From contig CAZTPW010000004.1 in the NCBI GenBank assembly GCA_964615725.1, forward strand, positions 1-54,356: a stretch of 54,356 nucleotides of DNA, in the 5' to 3' direction. This stretch comes from an uncultured Candidatus Saccharibacteria bacterium. Its GTDB lineage: Bacteria > Patescibacteriota > Minisyncoccia > Phycocordibacterales > CAZTPW01. Both the position numbers and the translations under genes were made by a program. This document shows positions 2,872 through 32,197 of this stretch, piece after piece; positions within the stretch are counted from its first letter, which is position 1, and the number at the start of each line of letters is the position of its first letter. The notes below the pieces were generated by a model. That model did no database searches. It worked only from the letters and a program-made list of their open reading frames with translations, and was not told where the DNA came from.

Positions 2872-3613
2872 AAAGCTTTTCTACATTCTCATACCTGCCA
2901 CTCTTCTCTTTGTGTGGCACATGATCACATCTTTTAAGCTCGTAAACCCACTTTTCCTCGCATCGCCATACGAAGTGTTCTCGCACCTTTTTGCAGGTTT
3001 TGCGAGCGGATCAATATATCAAGATCTTGGGAGCACCCTCTATCGAGTACTTGTTGGGTTTGGAATAGCGGCCATTGTTGGTGTACCAGTCGGCCTTCTG
3101 ATGGGATATTCGAGTCGAATTTATAATGCCCTTGAATTTGTTGTTGAGTTTTTTCGAGGAATCCCAACGACCGCGCTCTTCCCTCTCTTTCTCTTGGTAT
3201 TTGGTATTGGAGATGAGGCAAAGTTTGCGGTGACTGCATGGGGCGCTGGACTCGTCATTCTCATACATTCAATGTACGGAGTACACCTAGGCAAAGAACT
3301 CCGAATACGCGTTGCAAAAACGATGAAAGTGCGGGGTTTTGAACTTTTTGCAAAAGTGGTTTTTCCTGAAGCGCTTCCTCAGATATTTTCAGGTTTCCGT
3401 GTCGCGCTATCACTTTCCCTTATCATCGTTATTGTGACTGAAATGTTCATTGGCACTAGTGCCGGCCTCGGAAAGCGTATTATCGATGCACAACTCGTCT
3501 ATCAAACCGCTGATATGTATGCAGCAATCCTTCTGACTGGTGTAGTAGGCTTCGTGTTGAACAAACTTATGATTTTTGCTGAAAATAAAATCGTCCACTG
3601 GAAAGGAAAGTAG
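2861..3613 (+). CDS. NitT/TauT ABC transporter permease
   Basis: Six hydrophobic segments; EAA-like loop (VVFPEALPQIFSGFRVAL); overlaps the ATPase gene. Confidence 0.92.
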   Translation: MKNKKLFYILIPATLLFVWHMITSFKLVNPLFLASPYEVFSHLFAGFASGSIYQDLGSTLYRVLVGFGIAAIVGVPVGLLMGYSSRIYNALEFVVEFFRGIPTTALFPLFLLVFGIGDEAKFAVTAWGAGLVILIHSMYGVHLGKELRIRVAKTMKVRGFELFAKVVFPEALPQIFSGFRVALSLSLIIVIVTEMFIGTSAGLGKRIIDAQLVYQTADMYAAILLTGVVGFVLNKLMIFAENKIVHWKGK

Positions 3614-3633
3614 GCATTTGTATTCCTAGAAAT

Positions 3634-3661
3634 TTGACTGCCTCTTAAAATCTGCTAAACT
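3634..3661 (+). promoter_or_regulatory. sigma70-type promoter facing the 3' end of the PemK-like gene
   Basis: TTGACT-16-TAAACT with TGn extension; the same -35/-10 pair occurs at 42800-42827 in front of the M23 gene. Confidence 0.6.
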
Positions 3662-3666
3662 TATCT

Positions 3667-3748
3667 TACAAACGCCTTCGGGCTATCAACAGGAAGGCCT
3701 GTTGGGGAAAAGATAATTACAGCAACTCCCTGAGTGCTGTTTTTATTT
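3667..3748 (+). ncRNA. Candidate ~80-nt structured small RNA, antisense to the toxin 3' end
   Basis: Promoter upstream; hairpins GCC-TTCG-GGC and CAACAGG-AAGG-CCTGTTG; terminator ACAGC(A)ACTC-CCT-GAGTGCTGT followed by a T-run (3719-3750); no ORF. Confidence 0.45.
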
Positions 3749-4109
3749 TTTGAAAATCTTCCTGTGTCGCGACACCCAACTTCCCTCTCAGTCTTTTTGT
3801 GTCATAAAGTCTAAGCTGGGAAATAATGACCGAACGAGGACCATTTTTCGTTTGAATAACTTTATAATATTTATTGTCCTCCTTGAGCTTGGTAGACAGC
3901 GCACAGCCCCAAAACAAATGGTTGTTAAACTTCCTTATCACGAGCACAGGTCTTTCAAAATATTTTCCCTTTCCATCTTCTTCATCGCCTACATTAATCC
4001 CGAGAAGTATCCATAAAATATCTCTTTCCTTACAGAAAATACTATGGAAGGCGCGGTCTTTGCCATCCTGAATCTTTTTAAGATCGTTCCAACGGTCGAA
4101 ATCCTTCAT
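3717..4109 (-). CDS. PemK/MazF-like endoribonuclease toxin (orphan)
   Basis: RDILWILLGINVGDEEDGKG...RPVLVIRKF...ISQLRLYDTKRL matches the PemK/MazF fold pattern; no antitoxin ORF adjacent. Confidence 0.8.
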   Translation of the reverse strand: MKDFDRWNDLKKIQDGKDRAFHSIFCKERDILWILLGINVGDEEDGKGKYFERPVLVIRKFNNHLFWGCALSTKLKEDNKYYKVIQTKNGPRSVIISQLRLYDTKRLRGKLGVATQEDFQKIKTALRELL

Positions 4110-4206
4110 ACATAAATTCTACTGAACACGAGATCAAGAATTTATAAAATAAATTTCGATTTTTAATAAACTCGACACATTCTTCACACTCAATTACTAT
4201 AACCTC

Positions 4207-4794
4207 ATGAAAATCTACGTCGGCGGCGTCAACGGCGTCGGCAAAACAACGATCACCCAAGAAGCGGCAAAAATCCTCGGTATGGAGTGTATTCGTGGTA
4301 GCTATGCCCTTATGGAATACCTCGGCTTCGGGCACGACTACACAAAACTCCGCGCACTTACCCAGAAGCAACGTGACATCGCCAATCGTGAATGCAGCGA
4401 ATTTCTCCTCAACTCAAAAGACAACTTCATAATGGACGGTCATTATCTCGGTCTCGTTCATGGCAAGGTGGATCGTGTCACAGATTCATGGATCAATGGC
4501 TATGACGCCCTCATCCTCATTGAAGCACCTTTCGAAGACGTCTGGGATCGCATTGCTGCCGACGAAAAAACTCGTGACCGCGCCCTCTTCCCCACCTCAC
4601 ACGACGAGGATAATAAAAAGACCATGCTTAAAAACTATATCGATCAAACTCGAGAAGAATTTACTCGCATTGCCGAGCTCTACAAGAAACCTCACATCAT
4701 CATTCAAAACGATCATGGCAAGCAAAATGTGGCTATTCAGGCATTTGTAGATTTTGTTCGAAAAAATGGCAGTTCTCCCAAAAGTGTTGTATAG
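4207..4794 (+). CDS. P-loop nucleoside monophosphate kinase, archaeal adenylate kinase (AdkA)-like
   Basis: N-terminal IYVGGVNGVGKTT; FIMDGH resembles the AdkA D-x-H motif. Confidence 0.7.
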   Translation: MKIYVGGVNGVGKTTITQEAAKILGMECIRGSYALMEYLGFGHDYTKLRALTQKQRDIANRECSEFLLNSKDNFIMDGHYLGLVHGKVDRVTDSWINGYDALILIEAPFEDVWDRIAADEKTRDRALFPTSHDEDNKKTMLKNYIDQTREEFTRIAELYKKPHIIIQNDHGKQNVAIQAFVDFVRKNGSSPKSVV

Positions 4795-4830
4795 TGAAAT
4801 CTGAAAAAAAGCACAAGAGAAAGGCACGCT

Positions 4831-5037
4831 ATGCCAGGAAAATGGAGAAAGAACTGGAAACCTCCGGGCCATGTCCCCCAAAAGGTGTGGTTGCAAGCAA
4901 ACAGGGCTCGGGCACGACTCGCCCGGGCAAAGACAGAAGTTCAAGCACCTACACAGCCTGCACCGGCTCCGATGTCTCGGAGGCGCAGGAACGCAAGCAC
5001 AATGGGCCGACACTTGTTCGGACACAACAAAGGCTAG
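4831..5037 (+). CDS. Small Arg/Lys-rich hypothetical protein (68 aa)
   Basis: TATAGT at 4789-4794, AGAAAGG shortly before the ATG, ends just before the terminator at 5067-5089. Confidence 0.45.
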   Translation: MPGKWRKNWKPPGHVPQKVWLQANRARARLARAKTEVQAPTQPAPAPMSRRRRNASTMGRHLFGHNKG

Positions 5038-5066
5038 CGACATTGGTCGCACCTCATAGGAATCAC

Positions 5067-5089
5067 CCGCCTCATGGCGGTCTTTTTTT
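5067..5089 (+). terminator. Intrinsic terminator
   Basis: CCGCC-TCAT-GGCGG followed by TCTTTTTTT. Confidence 0.7.
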
Positions 5090-5102
5090 ATTGAGTACAA
5101 AA

Positions 5103-25087: not shown

Positions 25088-25408
25088 ATGTTGGCACGCA
25101 AAAATCGGGTAAATACCGCTCTGTGTAGCCAAATAATGAAAGATGGTAGCTCGGTGTTTACCCCGCTTCTATCGCTTCGCTATATGAAAAACGCGCCATA
25201 CCCGCGTTTTTCTGTTCTTGTCTCAAAAAAGGTTGCAAAGACTGCCGTGGAGAGGGTTTCAACCCGACGACGTGTCTATGGCATCCTCAACCACGCCACA
25301 CTTCCCAAGCTCTACGCACTTATAAGCGTTAAAAAATCAATCAAAGACATTTCTTATCAAGAACTCACACGCGAAGTGCATAATCTTTTGGCAAAAGTGC
25401 GCCCCTAG
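25088..25408 (+). CDS. rnpA: RNase P protein component (divergent RNR motif)
   Basis: Position between rpmH and yidC; RFSVLVSKKVAKTAVER..RRR. Confidence 0.88.
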   Translation: MLARKNRVNTALCSQIMKDGSSVFTPLLSLRYMKNAPYPRFSVLVSKKVAKTAVERVSTRRRVYGILNHATLPKLYALISVKKSIKDISYQELTREVHNLLAKVRP

Positions 25409-25428
25409 TCTACAATTAAGTAACTTTT

Positions 25429-26160
25429 ATGTATCACACTTATATTTACGTTCCCCTTTATAACGGTTTGATCGCGATTATCAATACCCTCCCTATGTGG
25501 GCAGGAGTCGGTGCTGCGATTGTTATCTTTACTATTATTGTAAAGCTCGTCCTCTTCCCTCTCTCAAAGTCTACTCTCAAGACGCAGCTTCGAATGAAAG
25601 AGATCGAACCAAAAATGAAGACCCTTCGAGAGAAATATAAGGGTAATGCCCAGGAGATGTCTGCACGAATGATGCAGCTTTATCGAGAGGAGAAAGTAAA
25701 TCCATTTTCAAGCCTTATTGGACTCCTTCTTGTAATTATTCAGTTCCCAATTCTTTTTGCGCTCTACAGAATCTTCTATTCAGGAGGGCTCCCAAATGTT
25801 CACACAGAGCTCCTCTACTCTTTTATTCATGCACCTACCGAGACACTCAATATGACCTTTCTCGGTATCAATATTGCCACAAAGAGCATCATCTTCGCAC
25901 TCCTCGCCGGTATCGCTCAATACTTCCAGATGAAGTATTCATTCGCTCAAATGACCACATCAAACACCCCTGCTGTTGATGCAAAGCCAGGTATGGGAGA
26001 CATGATGATGACGATGCAAAAGCAGATGAAATACACCTTCCCTATTCTCATGGTGTTGATTGCGTACTCAGTAAACTCTGCTATTGCGCTTTACCTTATT
26101 ACAAGTAGTTTGTTTGCACTTGGACAAGAGGTTGTAATGCGACGATCACTCCGACGGTAG
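25429..26160 (+). CDS. yidC: Membrane protein insertase YidC/Oxa1 (short form)
   Basis: AIVIFTIIVKLVLFPL, MKEIEPKM, YREEKVNPF, Q.PIL.ALY, ALYLITSSLF. Confidence 0.95.
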   Translation: MYHTYIYVPLYNGLIAIINTLPMWAGVGAAIVIFTIIVKLVLFPLSKSTLKTQLRMKEIEPKMKTLREKYKGNAQEMSARMMQLYREEKVNPFSSLIGLLLVIIQFPILFALYRIFYSGGLPNVHTELLYSFIHAPTETLNMTFLGINIATKSIIFALLAGIAQYFQMKYSFAQMTTSNTPAVDAKPGMGDMMMTMQKQMKYTFPILMVLIAYSVNSAIALYLITSSLFALGQEVVMRRSLRR

Positions 26161-30376: not shown

Positions 30377-32197
30377 CTACTGAATTCCCATTTCAGCTTT
30401 TTTCTTTTCAATCTCGAGGATTTTTGATGGATCTGAAGTGATGATTTGGTCCTCTGCATATGATGCGATGACCTTGATAGCAACGTGTTTAAGTCCTACG
30501 AAGAAAAGCCCCTCCCCCACATCTGATTCAAGCAAAAGGTACTTTTCTTCATCGGTGAGATTGAACGTTTGCTGGAGTTTGTCGATCGAAGTTGGTGACT
30601 GCTTGAGGAGAATCTGGATAGAAGAGTTGGTAATGATCGGTAGACCATAGGGAGATTTCATAAAGTCATCCACGTCCTGAGTGATGGTTGCAAGTCCAAG
30701 GTAGTATTTTCGTCCTCGCTTTGCCATACCAAGGAGGAAGGATGCTGTGTCCTCTGATTTCATCATCCACCATGCCTCGTCAATTACGAGAAGGCGCTTT
30801 CGCTTGTTTTTTCGCACTGCATTCCAGATATAGTGAGTCACAATATACATCGCTACCGGCTTGAGCTCATCTTCCATGTCTCGAAGTGAGAACACCACGA
30901 ATTTATTGTTGATGTCGACGTTGGTTGGGCGGTTCAAGAAGCCAGACCATGTACCTCGAGTGTACTTAGTGAGTCGTTGTACAAGGGATTCTGCACCTTC
31001 CATGCCAGCAAGCACGAGCTCAAAGTCTGACATGAGGGGCGGCTCAATGTTTGCAAAGTTTGAATCTGCGGTGATGTCTTTGAGGGCGTAGGTTTCAGTA
31101 ATTGCTCGGTCGATGATTGCATCTTCCTCAGGGGTAAGACCACCGAGCATGATTCGGAAAATACCAACGAGGTTGATGATGTTTGATCGGAGTACATCAG
31201 CTGCAGACTCATCCTTTCCCGGTACTGGGAGATCGAATGGGTTGATGTGGTGAACTGAGTTTAGAGAAATATTGAAGTACTTCCCTCCTGTTGCCTGGGC
31301 CATGTATTCGTATTCTCGTTCTGGGTCGAGCACAATCACTTCAGTATCGAACATGAGTGTTCGCAAGATTTCGAGTTTAGTACAGTACGACTTTCCGGAA
31401 CCAGATTTTGCAAAGGTGATTGAGTTGTAGTTTTCGAGTGAGAATCGATCGAAAAGTACAAGGCTCGAGTTGTGGCGGTTTATACCATAGAGAATTCCGT
31501 TGTTTGAGGTGAGGTCAAATGATGTGAACGGAAATACACTTGAGAGCGGAGATGAGTTGAGTTTTGAGTGGACGCCAAGCTCGTCGGTGGCGATAGGAAG
31601 AACACTCTTGTAGCCCTGCTCTTGCTGGAAGAGCGCCGGTCGTACGTAAATGAGTTTTGATTCAAGGATAGACTTGATCTCTGACTCGAGTTTGTCGAGC
31701 TCCTGCTCATTTTCACCATAGACTGAGATATAAAGGCCAACATCGAAGAGCTTCTCCTGCGCCTGCATGAGGTTGTCTCGGAGATTTTCGAGGTCTTGGT
31801 ATGCCGTGTCGAGCATCGGGTCTCGCACAAGTCCCTGCTCCTCCCGTCGGTGAATCTGACTCTGCACCTCGGCCACTTTTTTTTGAAACTGACGAAGTAC
31901 TTTTTGTGTTTCGACAGGGTGAACAAAGATTGAAATATCAAAAATTTTATCGAGGTTGATGATTGGCGAAAACCATCCTTCTGAAATAAAACGAGGATAT
32001 GAAATAACAAAGAATGTGCGTACAAGCTTCTCCCCTACGCTCAGCGAGCGGGGTGTGACCTTGATGGCCGATGGAGCGATAATGTCTTTTAGCTCAAGCG
32101 TGCTTGCTTCGTAAATATCTTTTGGCAATACCGTAGCCGTGCCCGGTGCTCCCGTGCCTGGTGTTGATTTTCCAAAAATTTTAGAAAAAATTCCCAT
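30377..32197 (-). CDS. VirB4/TraC-like ATPase
   Basis: Walker A AKSGSGKS, LDPERE, Walker B LLVIDEAW, RKYY, TQD. Confidence 0.92.
   Translation of the reverse strand: MGIFSKIFGKSTPGTGAPGTATVLPKDIYEASTLELKDIIAPSAIKVTPRSLSVGEKLVRTFFVISYPRFISEGWFSPIINLDKIFDISIFVHPVETQKVLRQFQKKVAEVQSQIHRREEQGLVRDPMLDTAYQDLENLRDNLMQAQEKLFDVGLYISVYGENEQELDKLESEIKSILESKLIYVRPALFQQEQGYKSVLPIATDELGVHSKLNSSPLSSVFPFTSFDLTSNNGILYGINRHNSSLVLFDRFSLENYNSITFAKSGSGKSYCTKLEILRTLMFDTEVIVLDPEREYEYMAQATGGKYFNISLNSVHHINPFDLPVPGKDESAADVLRSNIINLVGIFRIMLGGLTPEEDAIIDRAITETYALKDITADSNFANIEPPLMSDFELVLAGMEGAESLVQRLTKYTRGTWSGFLNRPTNVDINNKFVVFSLRDMEDELKPVAMYIVTHYIWNAVRKNKRKRLLVIDEAWWMMKSEDTASFLLGMAKRGRKYYLGLATITQDVDDFMKSPYGLPIITNSSIQILLKQSPTSIDKLQQTFNLTDEEKYLLLESDVGEGLFFVGLKHVAIKVIASYAEDQIITSDPSKILEIEKKKAEMGIQ

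Follow-up and report, generated by a model that had tools for sequence, protein, structure and literature searches.

A Small Structured RNA Convergent to a PemK/MazF-Family Toxin Gene in Candidate Phyla Radiation Bacteria: A Candidate RNA Antitoxin

Introduction

MazF is among the best-studied bacterial toxins, and its textbook partner is a protein, MazE; the pairing of a MazF-family toxin with a structured RNA is almost undescribed. In this work we analyse a candidate for such a pairing, composed of a gene for a predicted PemK/MazF-family endoribonuclease (hereafter the toxin gene) and a gene for a small RNA (sRNA) of about 85 nt running towards it, both encoded in the genome of an uncultured Candidatus Saccharibacteria bacterium obtained from a wastewater metagenome (assembly GCA_964615725.1, contig CAZTPW010000004.1). 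The whole stretch of DNA that was analysed, positions 1 to 54,356 of this contig, is called the window, and coordinates given without any other label refer to it. A first-pass annotation of the window had proposed a MazF-fold toxin governed by a downstream RNA, through either antisense pairing or direct binding, and this reading is supported by the sequence comparisons described below. The element opposite the end of the toxin gene turned out to be a conserved and covarying RNA gene that accompanies a whole subfamily of MazF-like proteins, and we consider it probable that the RNA is the antitoxin of this toxin, whatever the route by which it would act.

The Toxin Gene and Its Product

The toxin gene (3717-4109, minus strand) encodes a protein of 130 aa, the sole Pfam match of which is PF02452, PemK_toxin (residues 28-130, E = 1.8e-10, with a score of 41.4 bits where the cut-off is 23.1). 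It is also matched by PHROG 9567, described as 'MazF-like growth inhibitor' (E = 4e-17), and it found no match in PADLOC. The AlphaFold2 model of the protein (predicted local distance difference test score of 85.7) depicts the SH3-like barrel of MazF after an extra N-terminal helix formed by residues 4-15. In this N-terminal extension, which is specific to the subfamily, K2, W7 and K11 are invariant and D3 and D5 are common, whereas classical MazF proteins do not have the extra helix. A Foldseek comparison with the PDB gave 50 best matches that were all of the MazF type (MazF, YdcE and MoxT; probability 1.00, template modelling scores of 0.57-0.80), with the MazF proteins of Bacillus subtilis and Staphylococcus aureus at the top and neither ToxN nor AbiQ among these 50. 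In this line, the profile of the family aligns with B. subtilis MazF (4mdx and 1ne8) at an E value of about 3e-7 (2.7e-7 for 4mdx), and in the alignment to 4mdx the invariant R53-P54 falls on the catalytic R25 of the B. subtilis enzyme, and S72/T73 on its T48. Judging from these models and alignments, the toxin is a true MazF-fold protein that retains the catalytic Arg and Ser/Thr, with RNase activity and toxicity as predicted properties.

The toxin gene runs towards the final gene of an ATP-binding cassette (ABC) transporter operon, a permease gene that ends at 3613, and is divergent from a P-loop kinase-like gene on the plus strand (4207-4794). The first-pass annotation had argued that no room is left upstream for a protein antitoxin, which agrees with what we find: the gap to the kinase gene measures 97 bp, and a search for an open reading frame (ORF) inside it found none. 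A TAGAAT box had also been pointed out 6 nt upstream of the toxin ATG, and it is indeed there (4116-4121, minus strand), as a candidate −10 box with no good −35 box. Good −10 boxes at 4-12 nt ahead of the start codon occur in 21% of the loci of the family versus 5% of control positions, an enrichment of about 4-fold that, together with the position of the TAGAAT box itself, makes a leaderless toxin mRNA plausible at the window locus. Leaderless transcription would not be general in the family, since the toxin mRNA of a relative on the Campylobacter jejuni plasmid pVir (see below) has a leader of 26 nt according to its mapped start site.

The Small RNA Gene

The promoter and most of the sRNA sit in the 103-bp gap 3′ of the toxin stop codon. 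On the plus strand, a −35 box TTGACT (3634-3639) is followed, after a spacer of 16 nt that includes a TG at 3653-3654, by a −10 box TAAACT (3656-3661), the whole promoter spanning 3634-3661. This is the promoter that the first-pass annotation had placed on the strand opposite to the toxin gene. Taken as a single site it lies within chance, as a promoter scan of 2 kb returned 5 sites versus 2.6 expected, and its significance comes from its conservation. The sRNA gene itself would extend from about 3668 to 3752, with a start at A3668 and an end within a U-run. It opens with the motif ACAAAC (3668-3673), which is the putative 5′ end of the RNA, stays unpaired in the predicted folds and corresponds to a family consensus U-A-Y-A-A-A-Y. 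This motif is followed by hairpin P1 (GCC-UUCG-GGC, 3674-3683), the stem of which covaries (GC/UA, CG/GC), and by the 7-bp hairpin P2 (CAACAGG-AAGG-CCTGTTG, 3687-3704), which is supported by compensatory changes. An A-rich linker, GGGAAAAGATAATT (3705-3718), connects P2 with the terminator; read on the toxin strand, its complement supplies the U-rich tail that follows the hairpin. The terminator (3719-3751) is bidirectional and comprises hairpin P3 (ACAGCA...TGCTGT, 3719-3740) and a U-run, TTTTATTTTTT (3741-3751); it overlaps the final 11 codons of the toxin gene together with its stop codon. The UUCG hairpin, the 7-bp hairpin and the terminator antisense to the last ~11 toxin codons had all been described in the first-pass annotation at these places. 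As a 91-nt plus-strand RNA, the region folds with a z-score of −5.2 relative to shuffled sequences.

Searches with Rfam 15 gave no match at E ≤ 10 around the locus, at the gathering score on the whole window, or on 12 related loci. Other identities considered for the region were discarded. The first-pass annotation had also suggested that on the toxin strand the same sequence folds into a three-way junction closed by TTATCTT/AAGATAA. The complementary segments are present, but the junction is absent from the minimum-energy folds; the helix, which lies upstream of the putative start of the RNA, is specific to the window and is not maintained in the four closest relatives, and the junction was rejected. 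An integron attC site was rejected as well, since the region lacks R″/R′ core sites and is built instead from a promoter, a pair of small, independent hairpins (with UUCG and GNRA loops) and a terminator. A hidden small ORF was rejected for lack of room and for a pattern of conservation that is that of a paired RNA. As a separate observation, no dedicated terminator separates the ABC-transporter operon on the plus strand from the RNA gene (3614-3752), and any read-through from the operon would cross the RNA and stop at P3.

A Conserved and Covarying RNA Family

Four closer relatives of the window toxin, with 61-67% protein identity, keep about 110 nt past the stop codon nearly invariant, although their gene neighbourhoods are all different (an upstream Mur ligase gene 4 nt away, a YgjP-like gene, a gene for an unknown protein of 111 aa and a divergent gene). 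Among these close relatives the P2 stem changes in a compensatory way (CAACAGG/CCTGTTG, CAGTAGA/TCTACTG and CGAGAGA/TCTCTCG), and in the five closest loci TTGAC is invariant on the antisense strand, with a −10 box at the right spacing. A covariance model was built from the five closest sequences and refined twice (R1, R2 and R3). The window sRNA, which is matched over 3666-3752, scores 92 bits with R1 and 59-65 bits with R2 and R3. At E < 1, 82 of 93 sources contain a match to model R3 that lies antisense to the 3′ end of the toxin gene, a number that drops to 61 at E < 1e-3. The few other matches of the model are for the most part due to the palindrome of the terminator, picked up on the opposite strand, or to additional RNA copies, and most of the remaining loci, as judged by eye, have recognisable variants of the RNA.

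In the 43 strong matches, 94.5% of the cells hold standard pairs, versus 34-54% when the partners are slid, and 19 of the 20 base pairs change on both sides, with a covariation score of 0.744 compared to a maximum of 0.145 in the slid controls. All the modelled pairs of P2 (8/8, with 96% of the cells paired) and of P3 (9/9) show compensatory changes. The alignments used in these counts were fitted to the covariance model; the slid controls agree with the result, as does RNAalifold, which independently yields the three helices P1, P2 and P3. The P1 loop is UUCG in 34 of the 43 sequences and the P2 loop is of the GNRA type in 19, and G-U pairs outnumber A-C pairs (52 vs 8). This excess of G-U over A-C, together with the UUCG and GNRA loops, indicates that the functional strand is the plus strand of the window. 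The 9 nt preceding P3 include at least five A residues in 30 of the 43 sequences, and the 9 nt following it include at least five U residues in 39; it is this combination of a 5′ A-rich tract with a 3′ U-run that identifies P3 as a bidirectional terminator. The most frequent position of the 3′ end of the RNA is 36 nt into the toxin ORF, as in the window, where it covers the last 36 nt.

A sigma-70-type promoter scoring at least 9 out of 12 precedes 58 of 59 RNA copies, and in 44 of them the score reaches at least 10. The distance from the −10 box to the start of the model is 4 nt in 46 copies and 5 nt in 9, a spacing by which transcription, if initiated as usual on the seventh base past the −10 box, would begin at the A of U-A-Y-A-A-A-Y (ACAAAU), the columns of which are 81-98% conserved in 53 sequences. 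The first-pass annotation had proposed to examine the region downstream of homologous toxin genes for a conserved promoter and a covarying structure, and both are strongly conserved there. The promoter, the 5′ end of the RNA, two covarying hairpins and the overlapping terminator are all kept across phyla of the candidate phyla radiation (CPR), Campylobacterota, Pseudomonadota, Bacteroidota and Verrucomicrobiota. Altogether, these sequence comparisons establish the conserved stretch as a real RNA gene, working on the plus strand from a near-consensus promoter of its own.

Toxin and RNA as a Unit

In the loci compared, the RNA co-occurs one-to-one with the toxin subfamily and diversifies together with it. 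Two RNA subtypes can be distinguished by P1, which is either CC-UUCG-GG or a 4-bp stem such as UGGC-AUCA-GCCA. When these subtypes are placed on the toxin tree just 4 changes are needed, versus 20.5 in shuffles (none of 500 being as low), and the distribution tracks the phylogeny of the toxin and not the taxonomy of the host. The RNA subtype thus follows the toxin tree, from which it can be concluded that protein and RNA evolve and move as one unit. Tandem toxin paralogs, each with an antisense RNA of its own, are found as a group of three in a Sulfurovum locus (L053, 1810-3322) and as a pair in another locus (L066, 2329-3421). Extra copies of the RNA without a toxin gene occur in locus L018, where two promoter-bearing copies stand in tandem (about 3440-3560, antisense strand). 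A further extra copy (L069, 3585-3641) is made of the 5′ domain only, that is, ACAAAU, P1 and P2, the overlap part being missing.

No protein partner emerged from the neighbourhood. When the ORFs within 700 nt of the toxin gene were clustered over 81 loci, no family was found in more than four of them, and the four loci of the largest family belong to near-identical genomes. Ten short upstream ORFs contained no MazE, AbrB or ribbon-helix-helix domain, and the upstream neighbours in the relatives are unrelated housekeeping genes. In one locus (L094, 2932-3505) a toxin-plus-RNA unit of 543 bp is bracketed by a direct repeat of 28-31 nt (2932-2962 and 3475-3505), which is a duplication of the end (3′) of the YgjP-like gene lying upstream, and on these sequences the unit looks like a cassette insertion. 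No flanking direct repeat was found around the unit in the window or in loci L089, L092 and L096.

A Relative on the Campylobacter Plasmid pVir

Among the more distant relatives, pVir0047, a gene of 405 nt on plasmid pVir of C. jejuni 81-176, encodes a protein with 41% identity to the window toxin over 106 aa (BLASTP, E = 5e-23), including an N-terminal FDxWNxxKK. Just downstream of it, on the opposite strand, a promoter TTGATT-17-TATAAT can be recognised, and 7 nt past its −10 box lies the start site of an sRNA, CJpv3, at position 31119 (minus strand), as mapped by Dugar et al. 2013 (PMC3656092, Table S5). In the same table, the step height is 16164 at the CJpv3 start and 28 at the start of the toxin mRNA (30608), a difference of ~580-fold, and 16164 is the highest value in the portion of the pVir entries of Table S5 that was consulted. 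CJpv3, with 77 nt, was also seen on a Northern blot (PMC3656092, Table S12).

This sRNA is not of the same sequence family as the RNA of the window. Model R3 found no match on the loci of pVir, Helicobacter suis, Campylobacter coli and CJIE4, and just a weak match in Nitratiruptor. Moreover, CJpv3 ends 5 nt before the toxin stop codon and does not overlap the pVir0047 ORF. For these reasons, and given that it does not start with ACAAAU, we regard CJpv3 as an analogue within the same toxin subfamily that stands outside this RNA family.

An RNA antitoxin named CjrA has been reported on pVir and is cited as 'type I' in later papers (PMC10470494, PMC7826846). We consider it probable that the pair CjrA/CjpT (Shen et al. 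2016, Mol Microbiol 101:909) is CJpv3/pVir0047, an assignment of our own, as the citing papers give no coordinates. A second candidate for CjrA/CjpT is CJpv2, which faces the 41-codon pVir0034 at ~5 kb from the PemK-like gene. CJpv2, also validated by Northern blot, deserves a comment in its own right: it runs towards this 41-codon ORF on the opposite strand, which is called pVir0034 in strain 81-176 and the product of which has a hydrophobic N-terminal half (L102, 945-1238, equivalent to positions 25244-25537 of pVir from C. jejuni IA3902), and the two look like a classical type I toxin–antitoxin pair.

Comparison with Known Systems

The closest likeness is the one with CJpv3/pVir0047, which shares with the window a toxin of the PemK subfamily, the absence of a protein antitoxin gene and a short convergent sRNA just downstream of the toxin gene. 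The layout is analogous, and the pVir sRNA greatly exceeds its toxin mRNA in abundance. The two differ in that the pVir RNA falls outside the covariance model and stops short of the toxin ORF, into which the window RNA reaches by 36 nt.

With the convergent type I systems of B. subtilis (txpA/RatA, bsrG/SR4 and bsrE/SR5) the module shares a convergent RNA gene with a strong promoter of its own and a 3′ overlap at the terminator hairpins. Type I antitoxins are defined as cis-encoded RNAs complementary to the toxin transcript, and the gene layout in the window provides such complementarity over the last 36 nt of the ORF. Type I toxins, however, are typically hydrophobic and shorter than ~60 aa, those of these Bacillus systems being membrane peptides, whereas the window toxin is predicted to be a soluble MazF-fold protein of 130 aa. 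Exceptions to the small size of type I toxins exist, such as SymE and RalR. The overlaps in the Bacillus systems, of ~75-120 nt, are longer than the one found here, and the sequences of their antitoxin RNAs show no conservation between phyla, whereas in this family it is precisely the non-overlapping 5′ domain that is most conserved.

The type III systems (ToxIN, AbiQ/antiQ, CptIN and TenpIN) have in common with our module a Kid/MazF-like RNase core, a structured RNA, which in our case would control the toxin, and the lack of a protein antitoxin. In those systems the RNA is thought to sit in the groove of the active site in the manner of a bound product. Their antitoxins consist of tandem repeats, encoded as an array upstream in the same operon and cut into units by the toxin, in contrast with the single unit seen here, which is downstream and convergent and has its own promoter and terminator; no tandem repeats were found in the window between 3300 and 4500. 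In addition, the window toxin is not a member of the type III toxin families (ToxN, AbiQ, CptN and TenpN) but a bona fide PF02452 MazF. Finally, type II MazEF/PemIK modules (such as Kis-Kid, or EndoA-EndoAI of B. subtilis) coincide with it in toxin family, fold and catalytic residues, and differ in that no MazE/PemI gene adjoins the toxin gene here and in the extra N-terminal helix of the toxin. The first-pass annotation was therefore correct in stating that the layout fits neither classical type of RNA-controlled system, with a probable experimental precedent in the CjrA/CjpT pair of pVir, which is filed under type I.

Proposed Mode of Action

The explanation that we put forward, in which as a whole we have slightly less than even confidence, is that of a two-gene module of ~520 bp where a MazF/PemK toxin is neutralised at two levels by a convergent RNA antitoxin of ~85 nt that would replace the MazE-type protein. 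With its strong promoter, the RNA would be produced in large excess. At the first level, the 5′ domain of the RNA (pppA-Y-A-A-A-Y, P1 and P2) would bind the toxin dimer, occupying its RNA groove as a mimic of the substrate or of the product. The words bound by MazF enzymes are short and single-stranded. Since B. subtilis MazF, the nearest relative with a solved structure, cleaves at U^ACAU, an RNA starting with ACA would resemble the downstream product of such a cleavage with no scissile bond left. At the second level, the 3′ part of the RNA, a shared bidirectional terminator situated within the final 11 codons of the toxin, has a complementarity of ~45 nt with the 3′ end of the toxin mRNA, and pairing at this end would lower the stability of the toxin mRNA, as in convergent type I systems. 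Should RNA synthesis cease, be it because the module is lost, transcription is shut off or a phage attacks, the RNA, being labile, would decay and the RNase would be freed.

Within this scheme, direct binding to the protein is tentatively favoured as a main component of the action of the RNA, with a chance that we would put just short of even. The reasons are that conservation of the RNA is highest outside the antisense overlap (in the 5′-terminal AYAAAY, the UUCG hairpin and P2), that the 5′ domain does not pair specifically with the start region of the toxin gene, that the RNA subtype tracks the protein clade and that extra RNA copies occur with no toxin gene (L018), the L069 copy keeping these conserved parts even without the overlap. 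Regarding the second of these points, a trans-pairing test found that the 5′ domains pair with their own toxin start regions no better than with non-cognate ones (p = 0.78), and targeting of the translation start by the 5′ domain was rejected for this lack of cognate-specific pairing.

Several considerations weigh against this reading. The case for direct binding is drawn from conservation alone, and the invariant convergent layout could reflect either an antisense function or the mere inheritance of a very compact unit. The pVir RNA lacks both the 5′ ACAAAU and the UUCG hairpin, and the motif is thus not universal in the wider family; moreover, the CjrA/CjpT pair was filed by its own authors as type I, that is, as antisense, according to the papers that cite it. 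A depletion of ACAAA-type words was sought in the toxin ORFs and not found (z = +2.15), a result that neither supports nor disproves ACAAAU as the word cleaved by the toxin. A protein antitoxin encoded elsewhere in the genome is also possible, as the search for antitoxins covered the neighbouring ORFs.

Alternative Explanations

Among the alternatives, the strongest is a purely type I-like action, which we nevertheless regard as unlikely. The RNA would then be a cis-antisense one pairing with the 3′ end of the toxin mRNA, after which the duplex would be cut (e.g., by RNase III) or a protective 3′ hairpin would be lost, whereas the 5′ domain would just set the stability or turnover of the RNA. 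Bacillus txpA/RatA and bsrG/SR4 work in this manner, and the invariance across phyla of the ~36-nt ORF overlap and the bidirectional terminator would be expected from it. On pVir, the excess of the sRNA start signal over that of the toxin mRNA points in the same direction, as does the type I label given to CjrA in the papers that cite it. However, a type I-like action leaves unexplained both the cross-phyla conservation of a 5′ motif and a UUCG loop that do not overlap the toxin gene and the existence of the L069 copy, where the overlap part is missing. It would also be applied to an enzyme of 130 aa, when type I toxins are typically short hydrophobic peptides, and any RNase escaping repression would face no brake at the protein level. 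The pVir sRNA, with an end 5 nt before the toxin stop codon and zero overlap with the ORF, does not fit it either.

A second alternative, improbable in our view, accepts the RNA as a dedicated partner of the protein that is not an antitoxin; both would form a ribonucleoprotein, or the RNA would be a specific substrate or a regulator, for instance in phage sensing, RNA processing or cassette mobility. The strict one-to-one linkage and the co-diversification are compatible with such a partnership, and so are the conserved N-terminal helix, not found in classical MazF, and the copy that occurs as a 543-bp cassette between direct repeats of 28-31 nt. Against it, the fold of a toxic RNase is retained together with its catalytic residues, and a strong promoter for the RNA, a weak one for the toxin and a tiny autonomous unit follow the logic of toxin–antitoxin modules. 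Relatives are located on plasmids and prophages, where addiction modules are common, and the absence of a PADLOC match also speaks against this alternative.

A third possibility, which we hold to be very improbable, is that the toxin is restrained by other means, with the RNA as an accessory: either by an unlinked protein antitoxin or by auto-inhibition through the acidic, Trp-containing N-terminal helix, reminiscent of the Trp-bearing tail of MazE. The N-terminal extension, with its invariant K2, W7 and K11 and its common D3 and D5, is certainly peculiar to the subfamily, and solitary MazF proteins under the control of unlinked factors are known, such as MazF/MrpC in Myxococcus xanthus (PMC2701414). 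However, the module is found in many unrelated contexts and phyla, also as tandem units, with nothing else in common, which fits poorly with a host-encoded partner, and no MazE-like ORF adjoins the toxin gene at any of the 81 loci. The last alternative, that there is no RNA gene and the conserved stretch is just the terminators or 3′ untranslated regions of the convergent ABC permease and toxin genes with a promoter by chance, could invoke the position between convergent genes, a P3 that is a good terminator for both and a single promoter match that is not significant alone, but it is already contradicted by the comparative data, and we give it almost no credit. The element accompanies the toxin gene whatever the downstream gene or its orientation, and in 58 of 59 copies a promoter precedes it with constant spacing. 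The excess of G-U pairs and the UUCG and GNRA loops are peculiar to one strand, the covariation extends to a 5′ domain that no terminator would account for, and the pVir relative has a mapped start site and a Northern band.

Spread and Significance

The homologs of the window toxin come mostly from CPR bacteria. A pattern scan with one genome per species detected at least 588 encoding loci, which span CPR phyla, Rickettsiales and other Pseudomonadota, Campylobacterota, Bacteroidota, Verrucomicrobiota and Deinococcota. The subfamily amounts to 398 clusters (at 50% identity) at E ≤ 1e-30 and to 1906 at E ≤ 1e-10 in a set of 1.84 billion representative proteins. A metagenome scan with the single toxin protein retrieved distant relatives only, the close ones having been obtained through exact-protein look-ups. 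Relatives at 33-41% identity are encoded on plasmids of Campylobacter, Helicobacter and Nitratiruptor and in CJIE4 prophages of C. jejuni. The module is rarely borne by phages, with two loci in IMG/VR and seven Campylobacter prophage or phage records among the GenBank phages.

It is tempting to see in these loci a large unrecognised class of systems, in which MazF would be directly inhibited by a single-copy RNA of ~85 nt that is born as a product mimic at A-Y-A-A-A-Y, requires no processing and adds an antisense layer. Such a hybrid would stand outside the current types, centred in the CPR and transferred to Campylobacterota, Pseudomonadota, Bacteroidota and Verrucomicrobiota; we advance it as a conjecture about which we keep considerable doubts. 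If true, a whole MazF subfamily would have swapped its protein antitoxin for a small structured RNA, and this would account for many of the PemK/MazF genes annotated as 'orphan' in the CPR and in other uncultured bacteria. It would also tie the CPR modules to a little-known system of Campylobacter plasmids, with its abundant convergent sRNA and the reported RNA antitoxin CjrA. The RNA family, for which no description was found in Rfam or in the literature searched, is in any case a new and strongly covarying one available for curation, and the self-contained unit of ~520 bp offers a minimal system on how an RNA may restrain a MazF-fold RNase, be it as a product mimic, by antisense or by both.

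Two observations unrelated to the module can be added. Immediately after the kinase-like gene, a segment of ~300 nt on the plus strand of the window (4795-5100) has a G+C content of 0.56, above that of its surroundings, carries only overlapping ORFs on both strands and ends in a terminator-like CCGCCTCATGGCGG followed by a T-run; it had no Rfam match at E ≤ 1 and a fold z-score of −1.6, and could be an unrecognised RNA gene. In the CPR contig of locus L092 (1-571), the gene two genes upstream of the toxin gene, and separated from it by FemAB and Mur ligase genes, encodes an FtsH-type protease (AAA and Peptidase_M41 domains) with an intein that bears a LAGLIDADG homing-endonuclease domain.

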